A stretch of 64,000 nucleotides of DNA from Nocardioides sp. (GCF_036493135.1 NZ_DASXQG010000051.1:5785-69784); one strand, 5' to 3'; shown: positions 6,036 through 43,251, counted from the first letter of the stretch. The notes: generated by a model not told the origin, from the letters alone. Numbers and translations are program-made.

Positions 6036-6974
6036 TCAGGGCACCAGCGCGAGCTTGCCGCCGGGGTGCTTGCCCTGCAGCACCTCGGCGGCGGTGAGCG
6101 CTTCCTCGAGCGGGTACGTCGCGGCGACGGGCACCTCCAGCTTGCCCGCGCCGGCCGCCTCGATGAGCTCGGCGCGGACGGAGTCGCGGTACGCCTTGCT
6201 GGCCGGCCTGCCACCCCAGATCCGGTGGTAACCGTCCGCGGCGGCCCGATCGCCGGGCGCCACGATCGACACCATCCGACTGCGGTGGGAAACGAGCGCA
6301 AGGGACACCGCAAGCGCCTCGTCGCTCCCGATGCAGTCCAGAGCCGCGGCCACACCTTCAGGGGCCGCGGTCCGCACGCGCTGCCCGAGCCCGTCGCCGT
6401 GCGCGACCGGCTCGCCGCCGTAGCGACGTACGACGTCGAAGCGGGCCGGACTCGCCGTCCCGACCACCCGCGCGCCTAGCAGCGCGGCCTGCTGGAGCAG
6501 CATCACCCCCACCGCACCCGACGCACCGTGCACGAGGACGGTCTCACCGGACCCCACGCCGGTCACGTGCAGCATCTCGGAGGCGGTGGTGGCGGCCAGC
6601 AGCAGGTTCGCGGCCTGCTCGAAGGAGACGCCCGGCGGCTTGGCGAACACATCCTGCGCGGGGATGGTCAGCTCGGAGGCCCAGCCACCGCGCACCCGGA
6701 ACGCCAGCACCTCGTCACCGACCGCGCCGTATCCGGAGGCCAGCTCGGTGTCCGGACCGATCGCCGTCACCACACCGGCGACCTCGTAGCCCACCGGCCG
6801 AGGGAAGTCGTCGGGGTTGTTGCCCTCGGCGACGTGCTTGGCGTCGGCCGGGTTGAGCCCCGATGCGCGCACCACCACGTTCACCTCGCCGCGCCCGGGA
6901 GCCGGCACGTCGACGTCCACCAGCTCGAACACCTCGAGCCCTCCGGGACGATGGGCGATCCAGTGGCGGGCCAT
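6036..6974 (-). CDS. NADPH:quinone oxidoreductase / zinc-type alcohol dehydrogenase superfamily (MDR)
   Basis: ORF 6036..6974. Contains GEVNVVVRASGLNPADAK and VLVHGASGAVGVMLLQQAALLGARVVGTAS (Rossmann GxxGxxG). Confidence 0.85.
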   Translation of the reverse strand: MARHWIAHRPGGLEVFELVDVDVPAPGRGEVNVVVRASGLNPADAKHVAEGNNPDDFPRPVGYEVAGVVTAIGPDTELASGYGAVGDEVLAFRVRGGWASELTIPAQDVFAKPPGVSFEQAANLLLAATTASEMLHVTGVGSGETVLVHGASGAVGVMLLQQAALLGARVVGTASPARFDVVRRYGGEPVAHGDGLGQRVRTAAPEGVAAALDCIGSDEALAVSLALVSHRSRMVSIVAPGDRAAADGYHRIWGGRPASKAYRDSVRAELIEAAGAGKLEVPVAATYPLEEALTAAEVLQGKHPGGKLALVP

Positions 6975-7010
6975 GGCGGGCCAACGGTCACGCGACCGCG
7001 GCCATTCCCC

Positions 7011-7541
7011 TCAGGGTCGGGGTCGGCCTCCGAGCGGCGCGAGCCGGAGCACGTACGCCGGCGGCGGGTCCTCGCGCGGCACGAACCCGAGGCCGGAGAA
7101 GAGTCGGTGCCAGGCGTCGTTCCCCGGAAGGACCTCGCGCACACGCAGCTCGCTCCACCCAAGGACCCGCGCCCGGTCCACCAGCCGCAGGGTCACGCGT
7201 CGCCCGATGCCCTGGCCGCGGGCACCCGGCGCGACCACGATCGGCAGGGTGTCGGGCGCGAGCGTCACATCGCCCACGGCCTGCCAGGCGTCGCGGATGC
7301 GTCGCTCGATCAGGTAGACCTCGCCCTGCGCCGCCAGGGACTCATACATCGCGGCCACGCGCTCGCGTGTGTACGGCGGGTCCCCCGGCCCATCGACGAG
7401 CGCAACCGTCTCGGGGTCGCGGTACCAGGGCCAGGCCAGGTCGACGTCCGCGTCGCCCGCGAACGCACGCAGGCGCAGCTCGTCATCGACGTCTAGCACG
7501 ACGCCTGGCCCACGGCGCGCTACCGGCTCCGACACCCGCAC
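7011..7541 (-). CDS. GNAT family N-acetyltransferase
   Basis: GTG starts at 7541/7535 inside ORF 7011..7841. Contains the acetyl-CoA motif VVAPGARGQGIGRRV. Confidence 0.7.
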   Translation of the reverse strand: MRVSEPVARRGPGVVLDVDDELRLRAFAGDADVDLAWPWYRDPETVALVDGPGDPPYTRERVAAMYESLAAQGEVYLIERRIRDAWQAVGDVTLAPDTLPIVVAPGARGQGIGRRVTLRLVDRARVLGWSELRVREVLPGNDAWHRLFSGLGFVPREDPPPAYVLRLAPLGGRPRP

Positions 7542-7552
7542 GGCCCTCCCTG

Positions 7553-7723
7553 TCAGCTCGCGAAAAGCTCGTCGAGCATCCGGTCGGCTGCGCCGACACC
7601 GATCGAGAGGTGTCGATGACCCCGCCTGCCGGCCGGGAAGTCCAGCCCTTCGGCGTCGTACGGCGCCACGCCGGCGATCACCAGCGCGCCGCGGACCCGG
7701 TCGGGCAGGGTGATGGTGGACAT
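7553..7723 (-). pseudogene. 56-codon ORF resembling an internal alpha/beta-hydrolase fragment (likely gene remnant)
   Basis: My translation: MSTITLPDRVRGALVIAGVAPYDAEGLDFPAGRRGHRHLSIGVGAADRMLDELFAS. The RVRGALVIAGVAPYDAEGLDF stretch looks like the mid-region of a hydrolase, without N- or C-terminal parts. Confidence 0.3.
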
Positions 7724-7743
7724 GGGTCCTCTTCGGCTCGTGG

Positions 7744-7974
7744 TCAGAAGTCGCGGCGGCCGCGCAGCGAGTCGCCGCGGTCGGCGCGGAGGTGCTCCGC
7801 GAACAGCACGGGCGGTCCGTGACCGGGCTCCACACAGGCAACCCGGGTCTGGAAACGCTCCACCGCGAAGACCGGCTCGGCGCCGAGGCGTTCGGTCCAG
7901 TGCGCGAGGTCGGCGGCCGCGTCGCGGCTCGGGCAGTACACGAAGTCGAGCGGACCGAGTGTCAGGCGGTCCAT
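7744..7974 (-). CDS. Short VOC/glyoxalase-like protein, possibly truncated
   Basis: ORF 7744..7974, MDRLTLGPLDFVYCPSRDAAADLAHWTERLGAEPVFAVE... This looks like the first beta-alpha-beta-beta-beta module only (76 aa versus about 120 expected). Confidence 0.35.
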   Translation of the reverse strand: MDRLTLGPLDFVYCPSRDAAADLAHWTERLGAEPVFAVERFQTRVACVEPGHGPPVLFAEHLRADRGDSLRGRRDF

Positions 7975-7977
7975 CGC

Positions 7978-8361
7978 CTAGGCCGGGCCGTCGACGTTGT
8001 ACGTCGGCTCGCCCGTGCCGCAGCGGACGATCACCGCGCGGCCTGGCTCGTCGGACGGGTTCGATTCGCGATGGATGGCGCCGGCCGGGACGCGCAGGAA
8101 GTCACCGGGTCCGGCCTCGACGACGTCCGAGCCGCCGGGACCCGACTCCATCCGCATCCGTCCGCTCACGACGTAGAGCGTCGTCTCGTACTCGCCGTGG
8201 TGGTGCCAGCCGGACGTGGCGTGCGGCTCGGTGTCGACCGTGCCGGTCCACATCCCGTCGGCGTGCATCGCCACCTGCCGGCTCATGCCAGGCGTCGGGT
8301 CGGATGCGGTCAGCTCGTCGGCCCCGACGAGCGAACAGGGCTGCGCGGGATCTCGGCTCAC
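7978..8361 (-). CDS. Cupin domain protein
   Basis: ORF 7978..8361. Cupin motifs GWHHHGEYETTLYVVSG and GDFLRVPAGAIHRESN. Confidence 0.8.
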   Translation of the reverse strand: MSRDPAQPCSLVGADELTASDPTPGMSRQVAMHADGMWTGTVDTEPHATSGWHHHGEYETTLYVVSGRMRMESGPGGSDVVEAGPGDFLRVPAGAIHRESNPSDEPGRAVIVRCGTGEPTYNVDGPA

Positions 8362-8408
8362 CCGATCAGGCTATGCGTTCGCGAGGATGGTCGTCACCAG
8401 CGCGGTCC

Positions 8409-8414
8409 TACGCT
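8409..8414 (+). promoter_or_regulatory. -10-like hexamer TACGCT, 6 nt upstream of GTG 8421
   Basis: TANNNT-N6-GTG with no SD. Same arrangement as at several other genes in the window. Confidence 0.3.
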
Positions 8415-8420
8415 GGCGGG

Positions 8421-8741
8421 GTGCACGAGGACGCCGACCGGCTGCTCGCCGAACGCGAGGCGCAGCTGGAGTCCGAGCTGGTCGAGCTCACGAAGCCGAC
8501 CGGCGAGGTCGGCACGATCTCGTTCGGCAAGCGGATCGGCGACGGCACCTCGATGGCGGTGGACCGGCTGGCGGCGGTCTCGACGCAGGAGCACCTGCTG
8601 ACCATGCTCGACGAGGTACGACGCGCGCGGCGCTGCGTCGCCGACGGCCGTTACGGGATCTGCGAGGTGTGCGGCGAGCCGATCCCCGAGGGCAGGCTCG
8701 AGGCGCGACCATGGGCCACCCGGTGCGTCGCCCACAGTTGA
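8421..8741 (+). CDS. DksA/TraR family C4-type zinc-finger protein
   Basis: GTG 8421 within shadow ORF 7710..8741. Coiled-coil N-part and CEVCGEPIPEGRLEARPWATRC zinc finger. Confidence 0.8.
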   Translation: MHEDADRLLAEREAQLESELVELTKPTGEVGTISFGKRIGDGTSMAVDRLAAVSTQEHLLTMLDEVRRARRCVADGRYGICEVCGEPIPEGRLEARPWATRCVAHS

Positions 8742-19289: not shown

Positions 19290-19748
19290 TCAGGCGGACC
19301 AGGCGCCCGCCACCTGACGAGTCGCGGCGTTCAGCCGGTTCCACACGTTGATCGAGCTGATCGCGATCAGCAGGGCGGACAGCCCCTGCTCGTCGTAGTG
19401 CCGTGCGGCCTCGTCCCACAGCTCGTCGGACACGGGGTCGCCGCGGTCCGCGAGGCGGGTCAGCGCCTCGGTGAGCTCGAGAGCGACGCGCTCGGCATCG
19501 GTGAAGTACGGCGCGTCGCGCCACGCCGCCACGGCGTACAGCCGCTCGTCGCTCATCCCTTCCTTCTTCAGGCTGGTCGAGTGGAGCTGGACGCACACGC
19601 TACAGCCGTTGATCTGGCTCGCCCGCAGGTTCACCATCTCGATGGTCTCGGTCGGTACCCCGAGCGCCGCACCGGCCCGGCTGTACGCCGTGAGCGCCTT
19701 CAAAGCGGCCGGGACGACGAAGACGGGATGGGGCATCCGTGCTTCCAT
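19290..19748 (-). CDS. Carboxymuconolactone decarboxylase (AhpD-like) family protein
   Basis: ORF 19290..19748. Has LRASQINGCSVCVQLH (CxxC) and AVAAWRDAPYFTDAERVALELTEA. Confidence 0.85.
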   Translation of the reverse strand: MEARMPHPVFVVPAALKALTAYSRAGAALGVPTETIEMVNLRASQINGCSVCVQLHSTSLKKEGMSDERLYAVAAWRDAPYFTDAERVALELTEALTRLADRGDPVSDELWDEAARHYDEQGLSALLIAISSINVWNRLNAATRQVAGAWSA

Positions 19749-19823: not shown

Positions 19824-20699
19824 ATGCCTACTCAGGAGAAGCTGGCCGAGGACTTCGAGCAGCACCGCGCTCATCTGCACTCGGTCGCCTACCGGATGCT
19901 CGGCTCGATGACCGAGGCGGACGACGCCGTGCAGGAGGGCTGGCTGCGGCTGGCGCGTTCCGACACCCACGACGTGGTCAACTTGCGCGGCTGGCTGACG
20001 ACCGTGGTGAGCCGCGTGTGCCTGGACCTCCTCCGGTCGCGGAAGTCACGACGCGAGGAGCCGCTGGACTTCCACTTCCCCGACCCGGTCGTGACCCGCC
20101 TCGACGCCGACCCCGCGGCGTCCGCCGAGCAGTCCGACGCGGTGACCTTGGCCCTGCTGGTGGTGCTCGACACGCTGAACCCGCGCGAGCGGATGGCGTT
20201 CGTCCTGCACGACATGTTCGGGGTGCCCTTCGACGAGATCGGCGAGATCGTGGGTAGCACCGCGGCCACGGCCACCCAGCTGGCCAGCCGCGCTCGGCGC
20301 CGGGTCCGGTCCACGCCACCCCCCGCCGCGGATCTGGCGACCCAGCGCCGCGTTCTCGACGCGTTCACCTCCGCTGCTCGCGACGGAGACTTCGACGCCC
20401 TGCTCGAAGTACTCGACCCGGACGTCGTCCTGCGTGCGGACGGCGGACTTCGCGGCGAGTCGGGCATCGTGCGTGGCGCGCTCCAGGTCGCGTCTCAGGC
20501 CTCGGCGTTCCGGCGCGCCGGCCACGAGCCGGAGCAGGTCTGGGTGCTCGTCAACGGTGCGGTCGGTCTGGTCTCGCTGCGCAACGGGCGGCCGGTATCC
20601 GTCTTCTGCCCGGTGATCCGAAGCAACCGCATCGTCGAGATCAACATCCTCACCGACCCCGAGCGCATCACCACGCTCGACCTGAGCGACGTGCTCTGA
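19824..20699 (+). CDS. ECF sigma factor, group ECF41 (SigJ-like) with fused SnoaL-like C-terminal regulatory extension
   Basis: ORF 19824..20699 with SD GAAGGAGG. Has sigma2/sigma4 regions plus a ~100-aa extension with ADGG and DPERI (NPDKL-like) motifs. No anti-sigma gene is adjacent. Confidence 0.8.
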   Translation: MPTQEKLAEDFEQHRAHLHSVAYRMLGSMTEADDAVQEGWLRLARSDTHDVVNLRGWLTTVVSRVCLDLLRSRKSRREEPLDFHFPDPVVTRLDADPAASAEQSDAVTLALLVVLDTLNPRERMAFVLHDMFGVPFDEIGEIVGSTAATATQLASRARRRVRSTPPPAADLATQRRVLDAFTSAARDGDFDALLEVLDPDVVLRADGGLRGESGIVRGALQVASQASAFRRAGHEPEQVWVLVNGAVGLVSLRNGRPVSVFCPVIRSNRIVEINILTDPERITTLDLSDVL

Positions 20700-36333: not shown

Positions 36334-36384
36334 GGGCTCAGCCTGCCACTGACCGGCGGTGAGCGCGCTGTCGGTCCGGCTTCC

Positions 36385-36390
36385 TACGAT
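36385..36390 (+). promoter_or_regulatory. -10-like TACGAT, 7 nt upstream of the nfo ATG 36398
   Basis: TANNNT-GGCAGGC-ATG. Confidence 0.35.
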
Positions 36391-36397
36391 GGCAGGC

Positions 36398-37198
36398 ATG
36401 AGCACCATCCCCCTCGGAGCGCATGTCGAGCAGACCGACCCGATCGCGGAGGCGGAGGCGCGACATGCGCTGCACGTGCAGTTCTTCCTCGGCGACCCGC
36501 AGGGCTACAAGGGCCCCGAGATCCGATACGCCGGCGGCGCGGAGGGGCTGCGGGCCGACGCCGAGGCCGCGGGCGTCGGGCTGTACGTGCACGCGCCGTA
36601 CATCGTCAACGTCGCCACCACGAACAACCGCATCCGCATCCCGTCGCGCAAGCTCCTCCAGCAGCACATGGACGCCGCGGCCGAGATCGGCGCACGCGGG
36701 CTGATCGTCCACGGCGGCCACGTGAACAACGACGACGACCCGGCCGTCGGCTTCGACAACTGGCGCAAGGCGATCGAGGCCACCGACATCAAGATCCCGC
36801 TGCTGATCGAGAACACCGCCGGCGGCGACAACGCCATGGCTCGCTACCTCGACCGGATCAAGGGCGTCTTCGACGCGATCGCCGGCGCGGCATCAGGGTC
36901 GGACGACGTCGGGTTCTGTCTCGACACCTGCCACGCCCACGCCGGCGGCATCCCGTTGGAGTCGGTGGTGGACGAGATCCGCGCGATCACCGGCCGCATC
37001 GACCTGGTGCACTGCAACGACAGCCGCGACGAGTTCGACTCCGGCGCCGATCGGCACGCCAACGTCGGCGCCGGGAAGATCGACCCCGACCTTCTGACGT
37101 CGGTCGTCCGCGACGCGGGTGTGCCGGTGGTTTTCGAGACCCCGGGTGGGGCCGACGAACACGTGGCGGACTTCGAAGCGGTCCGCTCCCGGCTGTGA
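36398..37198 (+). CDS. nfo: Deoxyribonuclease IV (endonuclease IV, AP endonuclease family 2)
   Basis: ORF 36359..37198 from M14. Has LGAHV, LYVHAPYIVNVAT, LIVHGGH, LLIENTAG, CLDTCHAHAGG, and HCNDSRDEFDSGADRHANVG. Confidence 0.85.
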   Translation: MSTIPLGAHVEQTDPIAEAEARHALHVQFFLGDPQGYKGPEIRYAGGAEGLRADAEAAGVGLYVHAPYIVNVATTNNRIRIPSRKLLQQHMDAAAEIGARGLIVHGGHVNNDDDPAVGFDNWRKAIEATDIKIPLLIENTAGGDNAMARYLDRIKGVFDAIAGAASGSDDVGFCLDTCHAHAGGIPLESVVDEIRAITGRIDLVHCNDSRDEFDSGADRHANVGAGKIDPDLLTSVVRDAGVPVVFETPGGADEHVADFEAVRSRL

Positions 37199-37253: not shown

Positions 37254-39704
37254 TCACCCGAAGCAGATCAGCGGCGCGGGCGGCCCGTCGGGGTCGACCT
37301 CGCTGAGCGCACGCGCCAGCGCGGCCGCGGGCGCATGGCCGGCGGACAGCTCGCGGTGGAGTGACACCAGTACGTCGTGCGCGACCGCGTCGTTGATGGC
37401 CGCGGCCGACGCGATCACGCACCGGGATCCCGCGTGGAGCCACGCCGCGGTCATCCCGATCAGCTCCTCGCCACCGCGCAACGTGGAGCGGCCGACCTCG
37501 CACGCCGACAGCAGGACCACGTCGGGCACCGACGTGAGCTGGTCGATGTCGTAACCGAACCACGGGCCGTCCGCGAGCTCGAACCCGGAGAACAGCGGGT
37601 TCTCCGAGGAGTGCCGCCCGTGAGCCGACACGTGGAGCACGTCGACGGACCCGGCCAGCTCGCTCACCGCCGATGCGGTCGCCTCGGCCCCGTGCAGGAC
37701 GGTCGCGAGCGGCCACGTGGATGCGGCCGCCGAGGTCTCGGCCTCGGCCTGGGCGACGCGTGGACCCGCGACGAACCCCGCGGACGCCGATCGCAGAGCG
37801 ACCGTGTTGCGCGACAGCCACGACGTCGCCGACTGCGCCACGGTGACCGGTCGGCCGCGGTTGCTCGGCAGGACCGACCACGGGACGGCGGCCAGGACAC
37901 CCGAGGGCGTGAGGACCAGCTCTCGATCTCCGATCGCCTCGACCAGCGGCGCGACCAGCACGTCGTCGAGGCGCCCGAGCCGGCTGCGGAGCTCGGACCT
38001 GATCGCATCCGCGAAGGGGCCCGGCAGGTCGGCCGCCGCCATGTCGAGGTCGGGCAGGAGGCCACCGGTGAGGAGGTCCAGAGCGGAGCGCGGTCCGAGA
38101 TCGACGACGGAGGCCGTCGCCGAGGTGACCACCAGCGCGGCGACCTCCCGGTTGGTCACCACGTGCGCGACCAGCGCCCGCTCGGGCCCGAGTCGAGCCT
38201 GGACGTCCGACAGCGTGACGGGATCGTCGTACTCACCGGAGCCACGGTTCTGCCACGCCCGCTCCCGCACCCGCTGCCGGAGCTCGGCCTGGCGCGACGC
38301 GCCGACCCTGGTCTGGTCCTCCGCGGTCGCCAGCGAGCGCAGCTCCTGGAGGTCGGTCTGGGACTGCTCATCGCCCGGCACCCGCACCGGTTGCACCCGG
38401 CTGGCCAGCATCCGCGCCCGCTCCGACCACTCGAAGAGCGCGTCCGGCGATCCCGACGCGACAGCGACCCGGATCCCACGGACGGCGAGGCGGCGACCGT
38501 GCCCGGTCACCATCGTCTGGAGGTCGAGGCTGCCGAACGAGCTCTGCCACTCGTGCAGCTCGGCGAGGCCCTGCCGCAAGTGACGCAAGGCGTCGGCCCG
38601 CCGCCCGGCGCGCTCGGCGAGCGCGGCCCGCACGTCCCGCTCGCGCAGCCGTACGCCGAGCGGGGCGCGCGCCGGGACCCGGATCGCCGCCAGGCGTCGA
38701 CGCGCGTCGTCGAGCTCCCCCCTCCTCATCGACACCAACGCGGCGTCGAGCTCGATGTCGAGCGCCCACCAACGCAGGGCCAGGGCCTCGAGCTCGGTGG
38801 TGAGCGCCTCGGCCCGGCGAACCAGAGACGGACCCGTGCGTCCGAGCCGCACCTCGGCGCCGTGGACCAGGGCCTCGGCCTTGAGCCGGAGCGCCGGAGC
38901 GTCCATCCGAGCGAAGCGGGCCCGGGCAGCGCGAGCCGCCCCCAGCGCACGTGACGGATCGTCGGCCAGCGTCGCCCGGGCGATGATGAGCTCGGCCTCG
39001 CCACGGCGATGTGGCATCCGGTGCTGGCCATAGGTCCGCGCAGCCTCGTCAAGGGCGGCCAGCCCGCGCCGGGTCAGGCCCGCGGCCATCAGCACCTCGG
39101 CCCGGTCCTGGTTGCAGATCGCGGCTCCGACCTGGCTCAGCGGCAGTAGGACCGGCCGTACCGCGTCCATGTGGTGCAGCGCCGAGACCAGGTCCCCGCT
39201 CAGGAGGTCGGCGTACCCGAGGTTGTGCTCGGCCATGGCGGCTTCGAGCTCGTTTCCGCTGGGCTTGAGCAACGCGACCGCTGTGGCGAAGTCCTCGGCC
39301 GCGTGGCGGCCGGCACCGCGCGCTAGGTGGACGTTGCCCCGATTGATGTGCGCCTTCCCGAGCTCGACGGGGTCGGTCAGCATCGCGATGCCGACGCCGA
39401 ACGCGTCCAGCGCCTCGGCGGTCTCGCCCTGCCGCAACAAGATCAGCGCTCGCTGGCTGTGCAGAACCCCCAGCGTTTCGAAGGTGACTCCCGCCATCGC
39501 CAGCGCCTCGTCGCAGACCCGGAGCGCCCCTATGTGGTCGCCGAGCTCGACGGTCAGGAAGGCGCGGCTCGCCTCGATCCTGGCCAGCACGTCAGGCTCG
39601 ACAGCCTCCTCGCGGGCGCGCTCCAACAACCGGCGGGCAGCAGGCAGCCGCCGACCGACGAGGGCCTCCAGGCCCGCTTGATGGAGCTCGTGGGCGCTCC
39701 GCAC
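37254..39704 (-). CDS. TPR-repeat / CHAT-domain (caspase-like clan CD) protease, 816 aa
   Basis: ORF 37254..39704 with a GTG start 4 nt after the S8 stop. The N-terminal ~480 aa consist of TPR-like helical hairpins. The C-terminal CHAT domain has His (VLHVSAHGRH) and Cys (VVLLSACEVG). Confidence 0.8.
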   Translation of the reverse strand: MRSAHELHQAGLEALVGRRLPAARRLLERAREEAVEPDVLARIEASRAFLTVELGDHIGALRVCDEALAMAGVTFETLGVLHSQRALILLRQGETAEALDAFGVGIAMLTDPVELGKAHINRGNVHLARGAGRHAAEDFATAVALLKPSGNELEAAMAEHNLGYADLLSGDLVSALHHMDAVRPVLLPLSQVGAAICNQDRAEVLMAAGLTRRGLAALDEAARTYGQHRMPHRRGEAELIIARATLADDPSRALGAARAARARFARMDAPALRLKAEALVHGAEVRLGRTGPSLVRRAEALTTELEALALRWWALDIELDAALVSMRRGELDDARRRLAAIRVPARAPLGVRLRERDVRAALAERAGRRADALRHLRQGLAELHEWQSSFGSLDLQTMVTGHGRRLAVRGIRVAVASGSPDALFEWSERARMLASRVQPVRVPGDEQSQTDLQELRSLATAEDQTRVGASRQAELRQRVRERAWQNRGSGEYDDPVTLSDVQARLGPERALVAHVVTNREVAALVVTSATASVVDLGPRSALDLLTGGLLPDLDMAAADLPGPFADAIRSELRSRLGRLDDVLVAPLVEAIGDRELVLTPSGVLAAVPWSVLPSNRGRPVTVAQSATSWLSRNTVALRSASAGFVAGPRVAQAEAETSAAASTWPLATVLHGAEATASAVSELAGSVDVLHVSAHGRHSSENPLFSGFELADGPWFGYDIDQLTSVPDVVLLSACEVGRSTLRGGEELIGMTAAWLHAGSRCVIASAAAINDAVAHDVLVSLHRELSAGHAPAAALARALSEVDPDGPPAPLICFG

Positions 39705-39708
39705 CCGC

Positions 39709-41343
39709 CTATTCTGGCCGTTGGATGTCGGTGAGGCGCTCCACCGCCCGCCAACCGCGACGGACAGCCGCCGCCGCGCCCTGCGGTGGGTTCTTGCGGT
39801 TCATCAGGCTCTTGGACATCGCGGCGGCAAGCGCGCCCGCCATCAGGGGTGCCGCGAACGACGTCCCGCTCCACACGCCGAAGCCGCCGCGCTGTTCGCC
39901 GTCGCGTCGACGCCCCGAGCGGAAATCGTCGGGGTCGACGGATTCCCGGAGCCGCCCGTCAACCCAGGTCTTCGCCGTGGGCTGCAGGCCCCCTTGGAAC
40001 GGCGGCATCGTGCTCATCAACGACGCGCCCGGTGCGTAGCTGCGTACCCAGGCGCCCGCGTTGCTGAAGAGCGCGTCCGACGTGTTCGGGTTCAAGGCCC
40101 CCACGGAGACGACCGGCACACGATCACGGTGGCGGTGCACGGGGCCCTTGCGGTTGCTCCATGGCGCGAAGGCGGCGGGGTAGCACGGGCGGTCGGTGGC
40201 GTCGTTGCCGGCCGAAGCGACGACGACGACACCGAGGGCGGCGAGCTCCTCGAGGATCGTCAGCAGGATGGGGTCGAGGAGCTCGTCCGCCTTGTTCTCG
40301 TGGTAGTAGCCCATCGACAGGCTGAGTACGTCGATCGGGTGACCGCCGCGCTGGCCATCGCGCTCGAGACGGACCAGCTCGGTGATCTGCGCCAGCGTGG
40401 TCAGCCACTCCGACTCGACCAGAGGCCGGTCCGCCGGGATGCCGCGCCAGGACAGGATCTGGGCGTCCGGACAGGCCTGGTGGACGAGACCGGCCAGGAA
40501 CGTGCCGTGACCGGCGATCCGGTCGATCGAGCCGTCGAACGGACCGTTCAGGTCGCCGTGGCGCTCGGGGTCCGTTGCCGGATCGGCGTCGCCGATGTGG
40601 TGGCCGTAGAGCTTCACATTGGTCTTGACGACGCCGCCGTCGAACCAGAAGTGCGGGTAGCAGCCGGTGTCGAGCAGTGCGACGACGGGACGGCGTCCGT
40701 TGATCGCGGAGTTGGGGAACCGGGTGGGCTTGGGGCCGGCGTACGCGATCGGCTGGCGGCCGCCGCTGCCGAGGACGCCGTAGCTCAGGAGCCCTGCCGA
40801 CGCCCCCGTGGAACCGTCGGGGTGGGGCACGTCCCACGGATGAGGCACGTCCCACGGTTGCGGCTGGATCCACGCCGACGGGTCGGGCGAGTGCGGCACG
40901 TCCCAGGGATCTGGCGTCAACGGCGTGGTCGACACCACGTGGTCGAGGTCCACACCCCGCATTGCCTTGCGTCCGTGCAGCGCGCGAGCCGTCTGGAGGA
41001 GCACCCACGCATCCGGGATCTGCGTCACCGGAGTGGAAGGCCCAGTGATGCGCACCGTACGTACCCCGAGCGGGAGCTTGCGGGCCTTCGCCGGCTCGGA
41101 CTCCAGCTTGACCCGCCAGTCCAGGCTGTCGGCGGCGGTTGTCAGCAGGTCGACATGTTCTTGGAGCCGGTCCCCCTTGGCGATCATCAGCCGGGTGCCG
41201 ACGTACGCCGTCGGGCTCCCCTTCACCCCGTCGACGACCGGGGCGCGATCGGGGTCGAGGATGCGCGCGTCCGCAGCGTCAAGGTGTGCGCCTCGTGGCA
41301 TCCGGGGCTCGCGTGCCAAGGGGACGTTGCGGGAATCAGGCAT
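39709..41343 (-). CDS. S8 (subtilisin-like) serine peptidase without signal peptide, with ~215-aa unrecognised N-terminal region
   Basis: ORF 39709..41343 with SD GAGGA upstream. Triad D (VVALLDTG), H (IAGHGTFLAG), N (ASAGNDA), S (WSGTSFAAPLMAG). The N-terminus MPDSRNVPLAREPRMPRGAHLD is not hydrophobic. Confidence 0.85.
   Translation of the reverse strand: MPDSRNVPLAREPRMPRGAHLDAADARILDPDRAPVVDGVKGSPTAYVGTRLMIAKGDRLQEHVDLLTTAADSLDWRVKLESEPAKARKLPLGVRTVRITGPSTPVTQIPDAWVLLQTARALHGRKAMRGVDLDHVVSTTPLTPDPWDVPHSPDPSAWIQPQPWDVPHPWDVPHPDGSTGASAGLLSYGVLGSGGRQPIAYAGPKPTRFPNSAINGRRPVVALLDTGCYPHFWFDGGVVKTNVKLYGHHIGDADPATDPERHGDLNGPFDGSIDRIAGHGTFLAGLVHQACPDAQILSWRGIPADRPLVESEWLTTLAQITELVRLERDGQRGGHPIDVLSLSMGYYHENKADELLDPILLTILEELAALGVVVVASAGNDATDRPCYPAAFAPWSNRKGPVHRHRDRVPVVSVGALNPNTSDALFSNAGAWVRSYAPGASLMSTMPPFQGGLQPTAKTWVDGRLRESVDPDDFRSGRRRDGEQRGGFGVWSGTSFAAPLMAGALAAAMSKSLMNRKNPPQGAAAAVRRGWRAVERLTDIQRPE
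40822..40908 (-). repeat. In-frame repeat encoding 3 x PWDVPH (aa 146-174 of the S8 protein), linker between the N-region and the catalytic domain
   Basis: The plus strand carries three copies of GGCACGTCCCA(C/G)GG. The protein reads DPWDVPHSPDPSAWIQPQPWDVPHPWDVPHPDG. Confidence 0.85.
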
Positions 41344-41373
41344 GGTGGGTCCTCGCTGCGTTGCTGGGTGGGG

Positions 41374-41856
41374 TCAGATCTCGAACGCGGGGGTGCCGAA
41401 CGTCTGCTCGTCGGCGAGCTTGAGGGAGACACGGTAGAAGCCGGTGGGCAGGTCGGGGAACTCGAATCGCCCGGTGTCGGCGGCCATCCCCTCGAAGGTG
41501 CGGCCATCGCCGCCGACCTCGTGGATCTGCACCGGACCGCTCGCGGCCGGGACGACCCAGCCGTCGAGCCGCGCGCGGCCCTCCTCCTCGGATACGCCGA
41601 CGCGGACAAGGAGGTCGATGCCTTCGCCGCCGAAGCGCAGCGTGTAGGACCGCGCGCCACCGCGCGTGCCGACCAGCTCGGCGAAGCGCTCGACGACGAG
41701 CAGCATCTGGAGCTCGAGGTCCGGGTCGTGGTCGGCGATGTCGCGGGTCACGGCCACCATCCGCTCGACCATGCCGTCAGGGACGGGGTCGATGGCATCG
41801 GTCGCGCGGCGTACCTCGGCGAAGAGTTGCTCGTCCTGGAGGTGCGGATCGGTCAT
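41374..41856 (-). CDS. 160-aa protein: acidic helical N-half plus CarboxypepD_reg-like beta-sandwich C-half
   Basis: ORF 41374..41856 with a strong SD (CCAGGAGG-N6-ATG). The C-terminus LDGWVVPAASGPVQIHEVGGDGRTFEGMAADTGRFEFPDLPTGFYRVSL fits the carboxypeptidase-regulatory-like pattern. Confidence 0.65.
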   Translation of the reverse strand: MTDPHLQDEQLFAEVRRATDAIDPVPDGMVERMVAVTRDIADHDPDLELQMLLVVERFAELVGTRGGARSYTLRFGGEGIDLLVRVGVSEEEGRARLDGWVVPAASGPVQIHEVGGDGRTFEGMAADTGRFEFPDLPTGFYRVSLKLADEQTFGTPAFEI

Positions 41857-42089
41857 CGGATGCCTCCTGGGGACGTCGCTGGGCGATCAAGATCCTCGCA
41901 GGAGCATGGCGGAGCAGTCCGTCGCCGACAATGCCGACCGATGGGTCGGGCGGGCGCAGGCTGGGTCATCGGTGCGAGGTTCACCGTCGTGCGGTCCTTG
42001 CTGTGGAGCCGGCGGGGCCGGCGGTATCGCGCTGTTGTGCGGCCGTTCAACCCCTAGGAGCGCCGACGTCCTCCCCTGATACACCCCGG

Positions 42090-42102: not shown

Positions 42103-43251
42103 GTGGTCCCCACCGTCCGCCCGATCTCCGCCGACGAGCATCGCGCGTTCATCGCTGCGCAGCCATGGGCGAGCTTCCTGCAGACACCGGCGTGGGCGAC
42201 GGTCAAGTCCGAGTGGCGGGGCGAGTCGCTGGGCTGGTACGACGGCGAGCGGCTGGTCGGCGCGGGACTCGTGCTCTACCGCAAGCTGCCCAGGCTGGCG
42301 CGCTACCTCGCGTACCTCCCGGAGGGTCCCGTGCTCGACTGGGCGAGCGAGGACCTCGGCGACTGGCTGAGCCCGATGACCGAGCACCTGAAGAAGCAGG
42401 GCGCCTTCGGCGTGCGGATGGGCCCGCCGGTGGTCACCCGCCGCTGGAGCGCCGACCAGGTCAAGGCCGGCATCGCCGACGACAGCGTCCGTAGCCTGAC
42501 CGAGGTCGCACCCCTCGTCCGCTCGGCGATCGGGGCCCGCGTCGTCCAGCAGCTCGAGGCGCTCGGCTGGCGACGACAGGTCGCCGAGGGCGGGTTCGCC
42601 GCGGGACAGCCGCAGTACACGTTCGTCATCCCCCTGGTCGACGACGACGGCGCGCGTCGTACCGAGGACGACGTGCTCGCCGGCATGAACCAGCTCTGGC
42701 GGCGCAACATCCGCAAGGCCGACAAGGCCGGTGTCGTGATCTCGACCGGGAGCGCCGAGGACCTGAAGGCGTTCCACGACCTCTACGTGCACACCGCAGA
42801 GCGTGATCACTTCACGCCGCGGCCGCTGACCTACTTCGAGACGATGTACGACGCACTCGTCGCGGAGGACCCGGGCCGGATCACCCTCTGGCTGGCCCAC
42901 CACGAGGGCGACCTCGTCGGGGCCACCCTCGCGGTCCGCGTCGGACGACACGCGTGGTACTCCTATGGCGCCTCCTCGACCGACAAGCGCGAGGTCCGCG
43001 GCTCGAACGCCGTGCAGTGGGCGATGATCCGCGACGCGATCGCCCAGGGCGCCGAGGTCTACGACCTGCGCGGCATCACCGACACCCTCGATGCCGACGA
43101 CCCCCACATCGGGTTGATCCAGTTCAAGACCGGTACCGGCGGCGAGGCCGTCGAGACGGTCGGCGAGTGGGATCTTCCGCTCAACCGCACTCTCTACAAG
43201 GGATTCGCGCTCTACCTGAACCGACGCTCCCTGATCCCGGGCCGCAGATGA
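42103..43251 (+). CDS. FemAB-family peptidoglycan interpeptide-bridge aminoacyltransferase
   Basis: ORF 42103..43251. Has FLQTPAWATVKSEW, NQLWRRNIRKADKAGV, HAWYSYGASSTDKREVRGSNAVQW, and GLIQFKTGTGG. Confidence 0.8.
   Translation: MVPTVRPISADEHRAFIAAQPWASFLQTPAWATVKSEWRGESLGWYDGERLVGAGLVLYRKLPRLARYLAYLPEGPVLDWASEDLGDWLSPMTEHLKKQGAFGVRMGPPVVTRRWSADQVKAGIADDSVRSLTEVAPLVRSAIGARVVQQLEALGWRRQVAEGGFAAGQPQYTFVIPLVDDDGARRTEDDVLAGMNQLWRRNIRKADKAGVVISTGSAEDLKAFHDLYVHTAERDHFTPRPLTYFETMYDALVAEDPGRITLWLAHHEGDLVGATLAVRVGRHAWYSYGASSTDKREVRGSNAVQWAMIRDAIAQGAEVYDLRGITDTLDADDPHIGLIQFKTGTGGEAVETVGEWDLPLNRTLYKGFALYLNRRSLIPGRR

Follow-up and report, generated by a model that had tools for sequence, protein, structure and literature searches.

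Genes and proteins of the locus

We analyzed a stretch of Nocardioides sp. DNA of 64,000 nt (GCF_036493135.1, NZ_DASXQG010000051.1:5785-69784; the whole stretch is hereafter the window), in which positions 37254 to 41856 are occupied by three minus-strand open reading frames (ORFs), named A, B and C in the order of transcription. Gene A encodes a small protein, gene B a subtilase and gene C a protease that joins tetratricopeptide repeats (TPRs) to a CHAT domain. An earlier inspection of the DNA (the sequence-only reading) had taken the three genes for a candidate self-contained proteolytic cascade of the conflict or defence type. The layout that it gave is accurate: the gaps are 30 nt between A and B and 4 nt between B and C, 246 nt lie upstream of A, and an AGGAGG precedes gene A. 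The GC content is flat over the locus. A sequence scan found no N-terminal hydrophobic segment, Tat motif or transmembrane (TM)-like segment in A, B or C, and all three proteins look cytoplasmic.

41374-41856, minus strand: gene A, ORF of 160 aa
39709-41343, minus strand: gene B, ORF of 544 aa
37254-39704, minus strand: gene C, ORF of 816 aa with a GTG start
41863-41868, minus strand: Shine-Dalgarno sequence AGGAGG of gene A, 6 nt before the ATG

Within C, Pfam CHAT (PF12770) covers residues 576-803 (E 4e-28; 99 bits against a cutoff of 24). A CHAT-only profile of C matches DdvA (8rot, 991 aa; E 1.8e-4), and H695 and C735 of C align with H862 and C907 of DdvA (residue numbers from PMC11506125), its catalytic pair. 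The His/Cys dyad predicted earlier is thus intact, and both residues are invariant in 75 C orthologs. Csx29 entries align with the CHAT domain of C in the same register, though not significantly (E about 1.5), and full-length C has no specific relative among PDB sequences. The N-terminal part had been described as about 480 residues of TPR-like helical hairpins. Single-sequence Pfam TPR matches are below threshold; at the profile level the C family matches consensus-TPR, TOM70, OGT and KLC structures (E 9e-26 to 1e-7), which supports about the first 200 residues, but not the rest up to about residue 560. The protein begins directly with the TPRs and has no signal peptide or TM-like segment (maximum KD19 1.49).

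39105-39704, minus strand: TPR region of C, aa 1 to about 200 (family profile)
from there to about aa 560, minus strand: further helical region of C
37296-37979, minus strand: CHAT domain of C, aa 576-803 (Pfam)
37620-37622, minus strand: H695 of C, His of the CHAT dyad
37500-37502, minus strand: C735 of C, Cys of the CHAT dyad

Gene B encodes a subtilase (MEROPS S8), with Pfam Peptidase_S8 (PF00082) over residues 216-511 (E 4e-18; 66.1 bits against a cutoff of 21.8). As proposed from the sequence, the triad is complete: D225, H279 and S495 are in place together with the oxyanion residue N380, and all four are invariant in 81 orthologs. Both proteases therefore look catalytically competent, as judged from these residues. 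In agreement with the earlier statement that B lacks a signal peptide, Tat motif and TM segment, no recognised secretion signal was found, and its sole hydrophobic peak is the buried strand VVVVASAGND. Assignment of B to the mycosins (TIGR03921) was rejected: B scores 46.6 bits where the cutoff is 278.75, lacks both a signal peptide and a TM segment, and has no ESX genes in its vicinity.

The N-region of B, of about 215 residues, had been called unrecognisable. It instead comprises a conserved domain of I9-propeptide topology followed by a disordered repeat linker, as is evident from the ortholog alignment, the AlphaFold2 (AF2) model and Foldseek. In the alignment, a conserved N-domain is followed by a hypervariable repeat linker, a conserved SYGxPGSGGRQP segment and the S8 core. 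The AF2 model (predicted local distance difference test, pLDDT, 78.6; predicted template modelling score, pTM, 0.84) leaves residues 140-198 disordered and folds the N-domain as β-α-β-β-α-β, with strands at 46-55, 77-80, 94-100 and 131-136, helices at 60-73 and 112-123, and pLDDT values of 88-98. Foldseek retrieved subtilisins at E about 1e-9, aligned pro-Tk-subtilisin (2e1p) and PCSK9 pro-forms over 500-576 columns, and placed the intracellular subtilisin (ISP) structure 7y6m among the best fold matches (E 5.5e-9). The N-domain has no Pfam I9 match. From the model, B looks like a zymogen with an I9-like prodomain.

40936-41208, minus strand: I9-like N-domain of B, aa 46-136 (AF2)
40750-40926, minus strand: disordered linker of B, aa 140-198 (AF2)
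40822-40908, minus strand: hexapeptide repeats of B, PWDVPH-(17 aa)-PWDVPH-PWDVPH, units differing at synonymous sites only
39733-40698, minus strand: S8 core of B, aa 216-537 (Pfam, AF2)
40669-40671, minus strand: D225 of B, catalytic Asp
40507-40509, minus strand: H279 of B, catalytic His
40204-40206, minus strand: N380 of B, oxyanion Asn
39859-39861, minus strand: S495 of B, catalytic Ser

The three PWDVPH copies seen earlier are present in the linker, and their codons differ at ccc/ccg, ccg/cct/ccc and cac/cat. Tandem Repeats Finder detected nothing in this region of the window, where the adjacent copies are too few, and the array was analyzed by hand and by script. Perfect tandem peptide arrays occur in 77 of the 81 B orthologs, between the prodomain-like N-domain and the catalytic core, with a period of 6 in 75 of them and 2-11 copies (median 3). 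The unit varies by species around the consensus P-[FYVWL]-[HED]-x-[SPG]-[HN], and distant B proteins carry a PW[DE][ST]xG core inside units of 9-10 residues. One ortholog (L064) has 11 copies of NPYATG encoded by 10 distinct DNA units (the copy number is elsewhere put at 11-13), and another (L077) has PFHMGN ten times. Synonymous DNA differences among peptide-identical units are found in 72 of the 77 arrays. As the units are identical in peptide, divergent at synonymous sites and specific to species, selection acts on the peptide itself, with lineage-specific co-evolution.

These arrays raise the question whether B is a self-processing precursor that releases identical, species-specific hexapeptides as a signal or cofactor. 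Kex2-type S8 proteases process alpha-factor-like repeats, and PatA/PatG process cyanobactin precursors. Subtilisins have a P1 specificity for hydrophobic or aromatic residues, and the one such residue in each unit would suit this site; the species-specific unit and the peptide-level identity despite synonymous drift in 72 of 77 arrays would fit as well. However, many arrays hold only 2-3 copies, the operon has no exporter or modifying enzyme, all its parts look cytoplasmic, and the Pro-aromatic core equally resembles an uncleavable plug (PMC6220982). We consider release of peptides quite unlikely. The pro-peptide of ISPs is short, at about 18 residues, and contains one [LVI]-[IFLV]-P-[YFH] (LIPY/F) motif that plugs the active site (PMC6220982); ISPs lack an I9 domain. 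B is like them a signal-less, cytoplasmic S8 protease with a Pro-aromatic N-terminal segment, and differs in its N-region of about 215 residues, its full I9-like domain, its 2-11 tandem P-aromatic hexapeptides and the polar residues before Pro. By analogy, the resemblance of the repeat core to the inhibitory LIPY/F plug may serve as a lead.

Gene A encodes an acidic protein (30 D+E against 15 K+R) for which AF2 predicts (pLDDT 87) three N-terminal helices, a flexible linker and an eight-strand Ig-like β-sandwich. An exhaustive search showed that the A family falls into 382 clusters when grouped at 50% identity, with lengths of 145-180 aa in nearly every case. Its conserved residues are D23-P24-x-P26, R96-x-DGW100 and G129-R-F131, and the extreme C-terminus, T155-P-x-F-E-[IL], is invariant. 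No Pfam or NCBIfam family scores above threshold, the A profile has no specific relative among PDB sequences, and Foldseek on the model returned only generic Ig/FN3 folds (best E 7.6e-3). In public databases A is annotated as a "hypothetical" or "carboxypeptidase-like regulatory domain" protein. The sequence-only reading had likewise called A CarboxypepD_reg-like; PF13620 is sub-threshold on the copy in the window (12.8 bits where 32.3 are required; E 0.16), and the label holds at most as a remote similarity of the family, of which 69 of 112 members match the model weakly (best E 1.4e-5). The lack of Cys excludes A from the ZAS proteins, and a match to the anti-sigma factor CnrY in a single family member (E 0.044) was treated as noise.

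41701-41847, minus strand: N-terminal helices of A, aa 4-52 (AF2)
41395-41652, minus strand: Ig-like β-sandwich of A, aa 69-154 (AF2)
41377-41394, minus strand: C-terminal tail of A, TPAFEI-COOH, invariant

The wider module and its sigma factor

To place the operon among its relatives we carried out a locus census with one genome per species. It was anchored on B, as A-family alignments are too weakly conserved in any stretch to serve as anchor; at least 573 S8 relatives were found, and the best 80 loci were examined. Among the 80 loci with enough upstream sequence, 65 have the order sigma-A-B-C, 14 have A-B-C and one has B-C, so that B is accompanied by C in 80/80 and by A in 79/80 loci. The additional gene encodes a sigma factor of the extracytoplasmic function (ECF) type directly upstream of the A homolog. 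It was first seen at the loci of more distant B relatives, and passes TIGR02937 with 56-58 bits against a cutoff of 42.9. In the relatives the stop codon of sigma overlaps the start of A by 1-4 nt, 7-30 nt separate A from B, and 4-8 nt separate B from C. The description of A-B-C as self-contained does not hold in most genomes: 65 of the 80 loci start with an ECF sigma gene that overlaps A and is preceded by a conserved ECF-type promoter.

The association is not tied to a single gene order. Loci of distant A-family members show sigma-A-B-C in Microbacteriaceae, B-sigma-A in Amycolatopsis and B-A-C on metagenomic contigs. As the parts stay together in permuted orders and sigma remains next to A, they constitute a module, and the conservation of A, B and C as neighbours, linked in 79 of 80 related loci, does not depend on their order. 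From these comparisons, A-B-C is the conserved core of an actinobacterial module that normally travels with an ECF sigma factor.

Several individual loci deserve description. The Amycolatopsis locus (L087, 4801-7489) has the order B-sigma-A, possibly followed by C, in a member of the Pseudonocardiaceae. Two B-A-C loci have no sigma gene (L091, 5284-10096, and contig Qxw8RMmW), one of them with an ORF of 34 aa at the place of sigma, and judged from their sequences such loci point to independent losses of sigma. The sole locus with B and C and neither A nor sigma detected upstream is that of Leekyejoonella antrihumi (L068, 6899-11072), where a promoter-like GTATCA motif is still found at 6753. 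In L008 (A at 6425-6970, B at 7001-8635), B is 83% identical to B of the window and shares PWDVPH. Its A, unlike its B, groups with that of L012 and L066 (MEDTVMDDD...). This conflict between the trees of A and B suggests that Nocardioides lineages have recombined within the operon. In three long-read metagenome-assembled genomes (L008, 8544-11086; L042, 8523-11101; L072, 8490-11006), C is broken up into two or three frames, by either assembly indel errors or real pseudogenisation of the CHAT gene.

The operon of the window lies between two genes of the opposite strand:

36359-37198, plus strand: AP_endonuc_2/nfo flank gene, named from Pfam labels of syntenic loci
42103-43251, plus strand: FemAB-family flank gene, GTG start at 42103, named from Pfam labels of syntenic loci

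Both are housekeeping genes, as the sequence-only reading had it, and they recur in syntenic loci: close relatives of A share the femAB / A-B-C / nfo arrangement, and the femAB/nfo position is common to 23 sigma-containing (sigma+) and 12 sigma-less loci. In 10 loci with annotated neighbours, these too are housekeeping genes. This setting bears on whether the operon is an anti-phage or abortive-infection cascade, in which the TPR-CHAT protein would sense an invader and unleash the subtilase as a broadly specific executioner, and A would serve as antidote or decoy. The presence of two proteases that are unrelated, one being zymogen-like, and a fast-evolving, species-specific repeat that recalls arms races would fit such a role, and there is a precedent in a SAVED-CHAT protein that activates PCaspase, where the phenotype is abortive and a sigma factor is associated (10.1101/2023.06.23.546230). 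Against it stands a syntenic core-genome site in many species with flat GC, and the near-universal vertical retention in Nocardioidaceae is unlike that of patchy defence islands. A search of 2.9 M viral contigs for the module was negative, and it is effectively missing from 72,556 plasmids. PADLOC-DB v2 gave no match to A or C and only a generic subtilase model for B (E 0.012), which agrees with the earlier remark that no named defence system is recognisable.

The absence of cas, gasdermin and STAND genes, also remarked on earlier, extends to the annotated neighbourhoods, and the 64-kb window has no CRISPR-like array. The locus accordingly has neither the array and Cas7-11 neighbours of a type III-E Craspase, its match to Csx29 being that at E about 1.5, nor the PADLOC component matches and gasdermin or NTPase partner expected of a gasdermin or known anti-phage system. 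The conflict or defence role is hence not upheld, and we regard it as unlikely; the module most likely acts as a switch in gene regulation, not as an anti-phage weapon.

Promoter, gene D and the sigma-less lineage

Upstream of gene A lies a two-block, promoter-like motif, and the leader between the two holds a mini-ORF:

42056-42082, minus strand: promoter-like motif GTATCAG-N-GCTCCT, with -35 GTATCA, a 16-nt spacer and -10 CTCCT
41853-41984, minus strand: mini-ORF of 43 codons, VNLAPMTQ...CSCE...GGIR* (translation), in the 226-nt leader

The motif is located 226 nt upstream of A and about 25 nt from the divergent GTG of femAB, with a predicted transcription start site about 7 nt downstream (roughly 42047-42050). 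It is the single match in the window, where 0.03 would be expected. Its general form, (T)GTATCA(G)-N15-17-(G)CTC[CT]T, precedes the first gene of the operon in 75 of 85 loci, standing upstream of sigma in 60/66 sigma+ loci and upstream of A in 15/19 sigma-less loci; among the loci compared, the boxes and the distance between them are conserved, and the sequence of the spacer is variable. Of 99 strict matches in 1.2 Mb, 58 fall at the operon start, and about 30 more lie directly after C. In many sigma+ loci the boxes are positioned at -35 to -30 and -13 to -9 relative to the sigma GTG, a geometry that suggests a leaderless, probably autoregulated sigma mRNA in many relatives. From its form and position we infer an ECF-type promoter, recognised by the sigma factor of the module.

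The second motif copy, after C in about 30 sigma+ loci, precedes a conserved and often leaderless gene of about 100 aa, gene D, present in 22 loci of one sub-lineage (L006, L018-L022, L026, L027, L031, L033, L037, L039-L041, L044, L045, L047, L055, L059, L081, L084 and L086; for example L021, 10983-11310). Gene D has no Pfam, NCBIfam or PDB match, though by eye its product may be chagasin-like, and neither the window nor any sigma-less locus contains it. Sigma is also preceded, at 75-160 nt, by a divergent motif copy of the opposite strand in L006 (~6794, minus strand), L022 (~5813, minus strand), L026 (~5776, minus strand), L062 (~5677, minus strand) and L075 (~5636, minus strand). In L006, L022 and L026 it faces femAB, which hints that femAB may be in the sigma regulon in some species.

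The mini-ORF is preceded by AAGGAC, and its TGA overlaps the ATG of A (ATGA). Nine sigma-less loci retain its frame together with the V[DN]LAP start and the GGIR* end, although its length is 39, 43, 46 or 55 codons, and in sigma+ relatives the sigma/A junction and the sigma C-termini look similar to the ATGA junction and the "GGI(R)*" end. By this resemblance the mini-ORF is probably the scar of an in-situ deletion of sigma, and could also be a translated upstream ORF coupled to A. The window lacks the adjacent, co-transcribed sigma gene of an ECF sigma/anti-sigma module, which 65 of 80 relatives possess, and its copy is thus a derivative of a sigma module and not a member. Comparison of the loci indicates that the three-gene form of the window is a derived, sigma-deleted version, whose lineage lost sigma and D in situ.

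An ECF sigma gene does occur elsewhere in the window (19824-20699, plus strand). It was rejected as the trans-acting sigma factor, its product of 291 aa being of a different type, with a long C-terminal extension and only 28% identity to the module sigma (E 0.26). It adjoins a divergent gene for an AhpD/carboxymuconolactone-decarboxylase-like CxxC protein (19290-19748, minus strand), and the two resemble what we take to be a classical ECF41-type pair.

With sigma and the sigma-dependent D both gone, the A-B-C operon of the window might be a functionless, decaying remnant. This is at odds with intact ORFs, invariant catalytic residues and promoter boxes that are kept while the spacer varies, and also with the retention of the sigma-less form in at least 13 species-level genomes, among which B has diverged to 48-86% identity and A has a mean identity of 72%. 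Pairs within the sigma-less clade average 72/63/72% identity for A, B and C, versus 65/66/64% for sigma+ pairs at equal C divergence. These values suggest that A-B-C has stayed under purifying selection after the loss of sigma, with the promoter kept as well, and decay appears highly improbable.

A candidate proteolytic switch

The evidence above is best accommodated, with a probability that we put at about one half, by the derivation of A-B-C from a cytoplasmic CHAT/S8 proteolytic switch that controls an ECF sigma factor through A. A would be a candidate sigma-binding or anti-sigma adaptor and a protease substrate, holding sigma through its N-terminal helices, with the β-sandwich and the TPxFE[IL]-COOH tail facing the proteases. 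C would be the sensor-protease, whose TPR array is coupled to the CHAT dyad, such that a signal perceived by the TPRs may activate CHAT. B would be held inactive by its I9-like prodomain, tethered via the tandem hexapeptide array. The S8 core would be set free by cleavage in the repeat linker of B, in A, or in both; the subsequent destruction of A would release sigma. The freed sigma factor would then transcribe its own operon from GTATCA-N16-CTCCT, in a positive feedback, and gene D where present. In the lineage of the window, A-B-C may answer to a sigma factor of the same specificity encoded elsewhere, or may have a sigma-independent output.

Several observations weigh against this scheme. 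No cognate sigma gene is present within the window (best tblastn E 0.058), and A matches no anti-sigma family or structure in Pfam, NCBIfam, the PDB or Foldseek. A is moreover kept in at least three sigma-less contexts (the clade of the window; L080; L091/Qxw8RMmW), and this survival without sigma implies that the main partner of A may be a protease and not sigma. Within the sigma-less clade, identity in A is 97% for the tail, 75% for the β-domain and 63% for the N-terminal helices, as compared to 41% for the helices and 40% for the β-domain in sigma+ pairs; the lower conservation of the helices in the sigma-less clade fits a partial relaxation. Finally, the repeat consensus lacks a conserved basic or acidic residue of the kind that many caspase-like proteases cut after. 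The role of A is the main uncertainty of the sigma-switch reading.

The same observations lend themselves to a different account of A, as chiefly a protease inhibitor or substrate, with sigma a separate output or a substrate of the cascade and A-B-C a self-sufficient system of regulated proteolysis. The persistence of A-B-C without sigma and the better conservation of the β-sandwich and tail speak for this possibility. Known inhibitors of cytoplasmic proteases include small proteins with an Ig fold or of a CI-2-like type, namely IPI, a small Ig-like protein reported to inhibit Isp1 (PMC3901451), and PCi, for PCaspase, and in Haliangium the second protease cleaves sigma directly (10.1101/2023.06.23.546230). 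A, however, has no sequence or fold match to IPI or to other inhibitor families, the operon offers no other anti-sigma candidate, and the strict adjacency and translational coupling of sigma and A, even in permuted order, are a hallmark of sigma/anti-sigma pairs. On balance we consider the inhibitor account doubtful.

The sigma-switch reading can be made more specific, as a signalling device of a new, cytoplasmic class: a two-step switch of a TPR-CHAT protease and a subtilase zymogen would act on a new soluble type of anti-sigma factor, with the selected hexapeptides as a "fuse", that is, a species-specific, multi-copy pseudo-substrate or cleavage array co-evolving with its protease partner, and the sigma-less lineages would have been rewired to a sigma-independent output. 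We offer this combination tentatively, as a possible but not a probable elaboration.

Proteases of the CHAT class have been linked to sigma factors before. In Myxococcus xanthus, the TPR-CHAT anti-sigma factor DdvA is paired with its ECF sigma DdvS, and proteolytic release of the sigma factor has been proposed; DdvA is a single polypeptide in which a TM helix connects a zinc anti-sigma domain in the cytoplasm to a TPR-CHAT part in the periplasm (PMC11506125). The operon shares with this pair the genetic tie between TPR-CHAT and an ECF sigma factor, and DdvA is the closest solved relative of C by sequence. C on the other hand is separate and soluble, without TM helix or zinc motif, the candidate anti-sigma protein A is likewise separate, and an S8 protease is obligatory. 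In type III-E Craspase, the TPR-CHAT protein Csx29 cleaves Csx30, an inhibitor of CASP-sigma, and sigma-binding motifs at the locus give positive autoregulation (PMC10028731). The proposed mechanism would be similar in a cytoplasmic TPR-CHAT protease acting on a sigma-inhibiting partner, and a putative sigma motif lies at its own locus; Cas7-11/gRAMP, a CRISPR array, Csx30 and Csx31 are missing and an S8 protease is present. The activator of A-B-C cannot be a crRNA complex.

The type III-B system of Haliangium ochraceum comprises a cascade in which SAVED-CHAT activates PCaspase by cleavage and PCaspase then acts on PCc-sigma and PCi (bioRxiv 10.1101/2023.06.23.546230). Its parts correspond to those of the module, namely a CHAT protease fused to a sensor, a second protease, a sigma factor and a small partner. 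In Haliangium a cA3-binding SAVED domain is the sensor, compared to TPRs in C, and the second protease is C14 caspase-like, compared to S8 with an I9-like prodomain; that system is CRISPR/CBASS-linked and acts in abortive infection, whereas A-B-C is core-genomic and without defence context. In the CalpL-CalpT-CalpS system, a cA4-activated SAVED-Lon protease reportedly cleaves an anti-sigma factor and frees an ECF sigma factor. The logic would be alike, with sensor-protease and anti-sigma factor both soluble and an ECF sigma factor as the third part; the system differs in protease class and sensor, in its CRISPR linkage and in its single protease.

Full-text literature searches turned up no account of a module that combines sigma, A, S8 and TPR-CHAT, and the paper on ECF reclassification mentions neither CHAT nor S8 in its main text. 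We class the module with the protease-controlled sigma/anti-sigma modules that use CHAT, as an apparently undescribed variant. It stands out through its S8 zymogen, which is obligatory, through A as a new protein family, through a hexapeptide array under selection and through derivatives that naturally lack sigma, among them the copy in the window.

Signal transduction in bacteria has ECF sigma factors as its third major pillar, and the routes known to activate them are membrane cascades of regulated intramembrane proteolysis, partner switching, phosphorylation and C-terminal extensions. If the sigma-switch reading is true, wholly cytoplasmic activation of an ECF sigma factor via two unrelated proteases would add a mechanism to these routes, and one so far seen only in CRISPR-linked defence loci would also serve ordinary chromosomal regulation, with a CHAT/S8 sigma switch operating across several actinobacterial families. 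The hexapeptide arrays provide a rare, clean case in which the identity of repeats within a protein is selected while the repeats diverge between species. Natural variants without sigma and D, such as that of the window, would be ready-made genetic dissections of the module.

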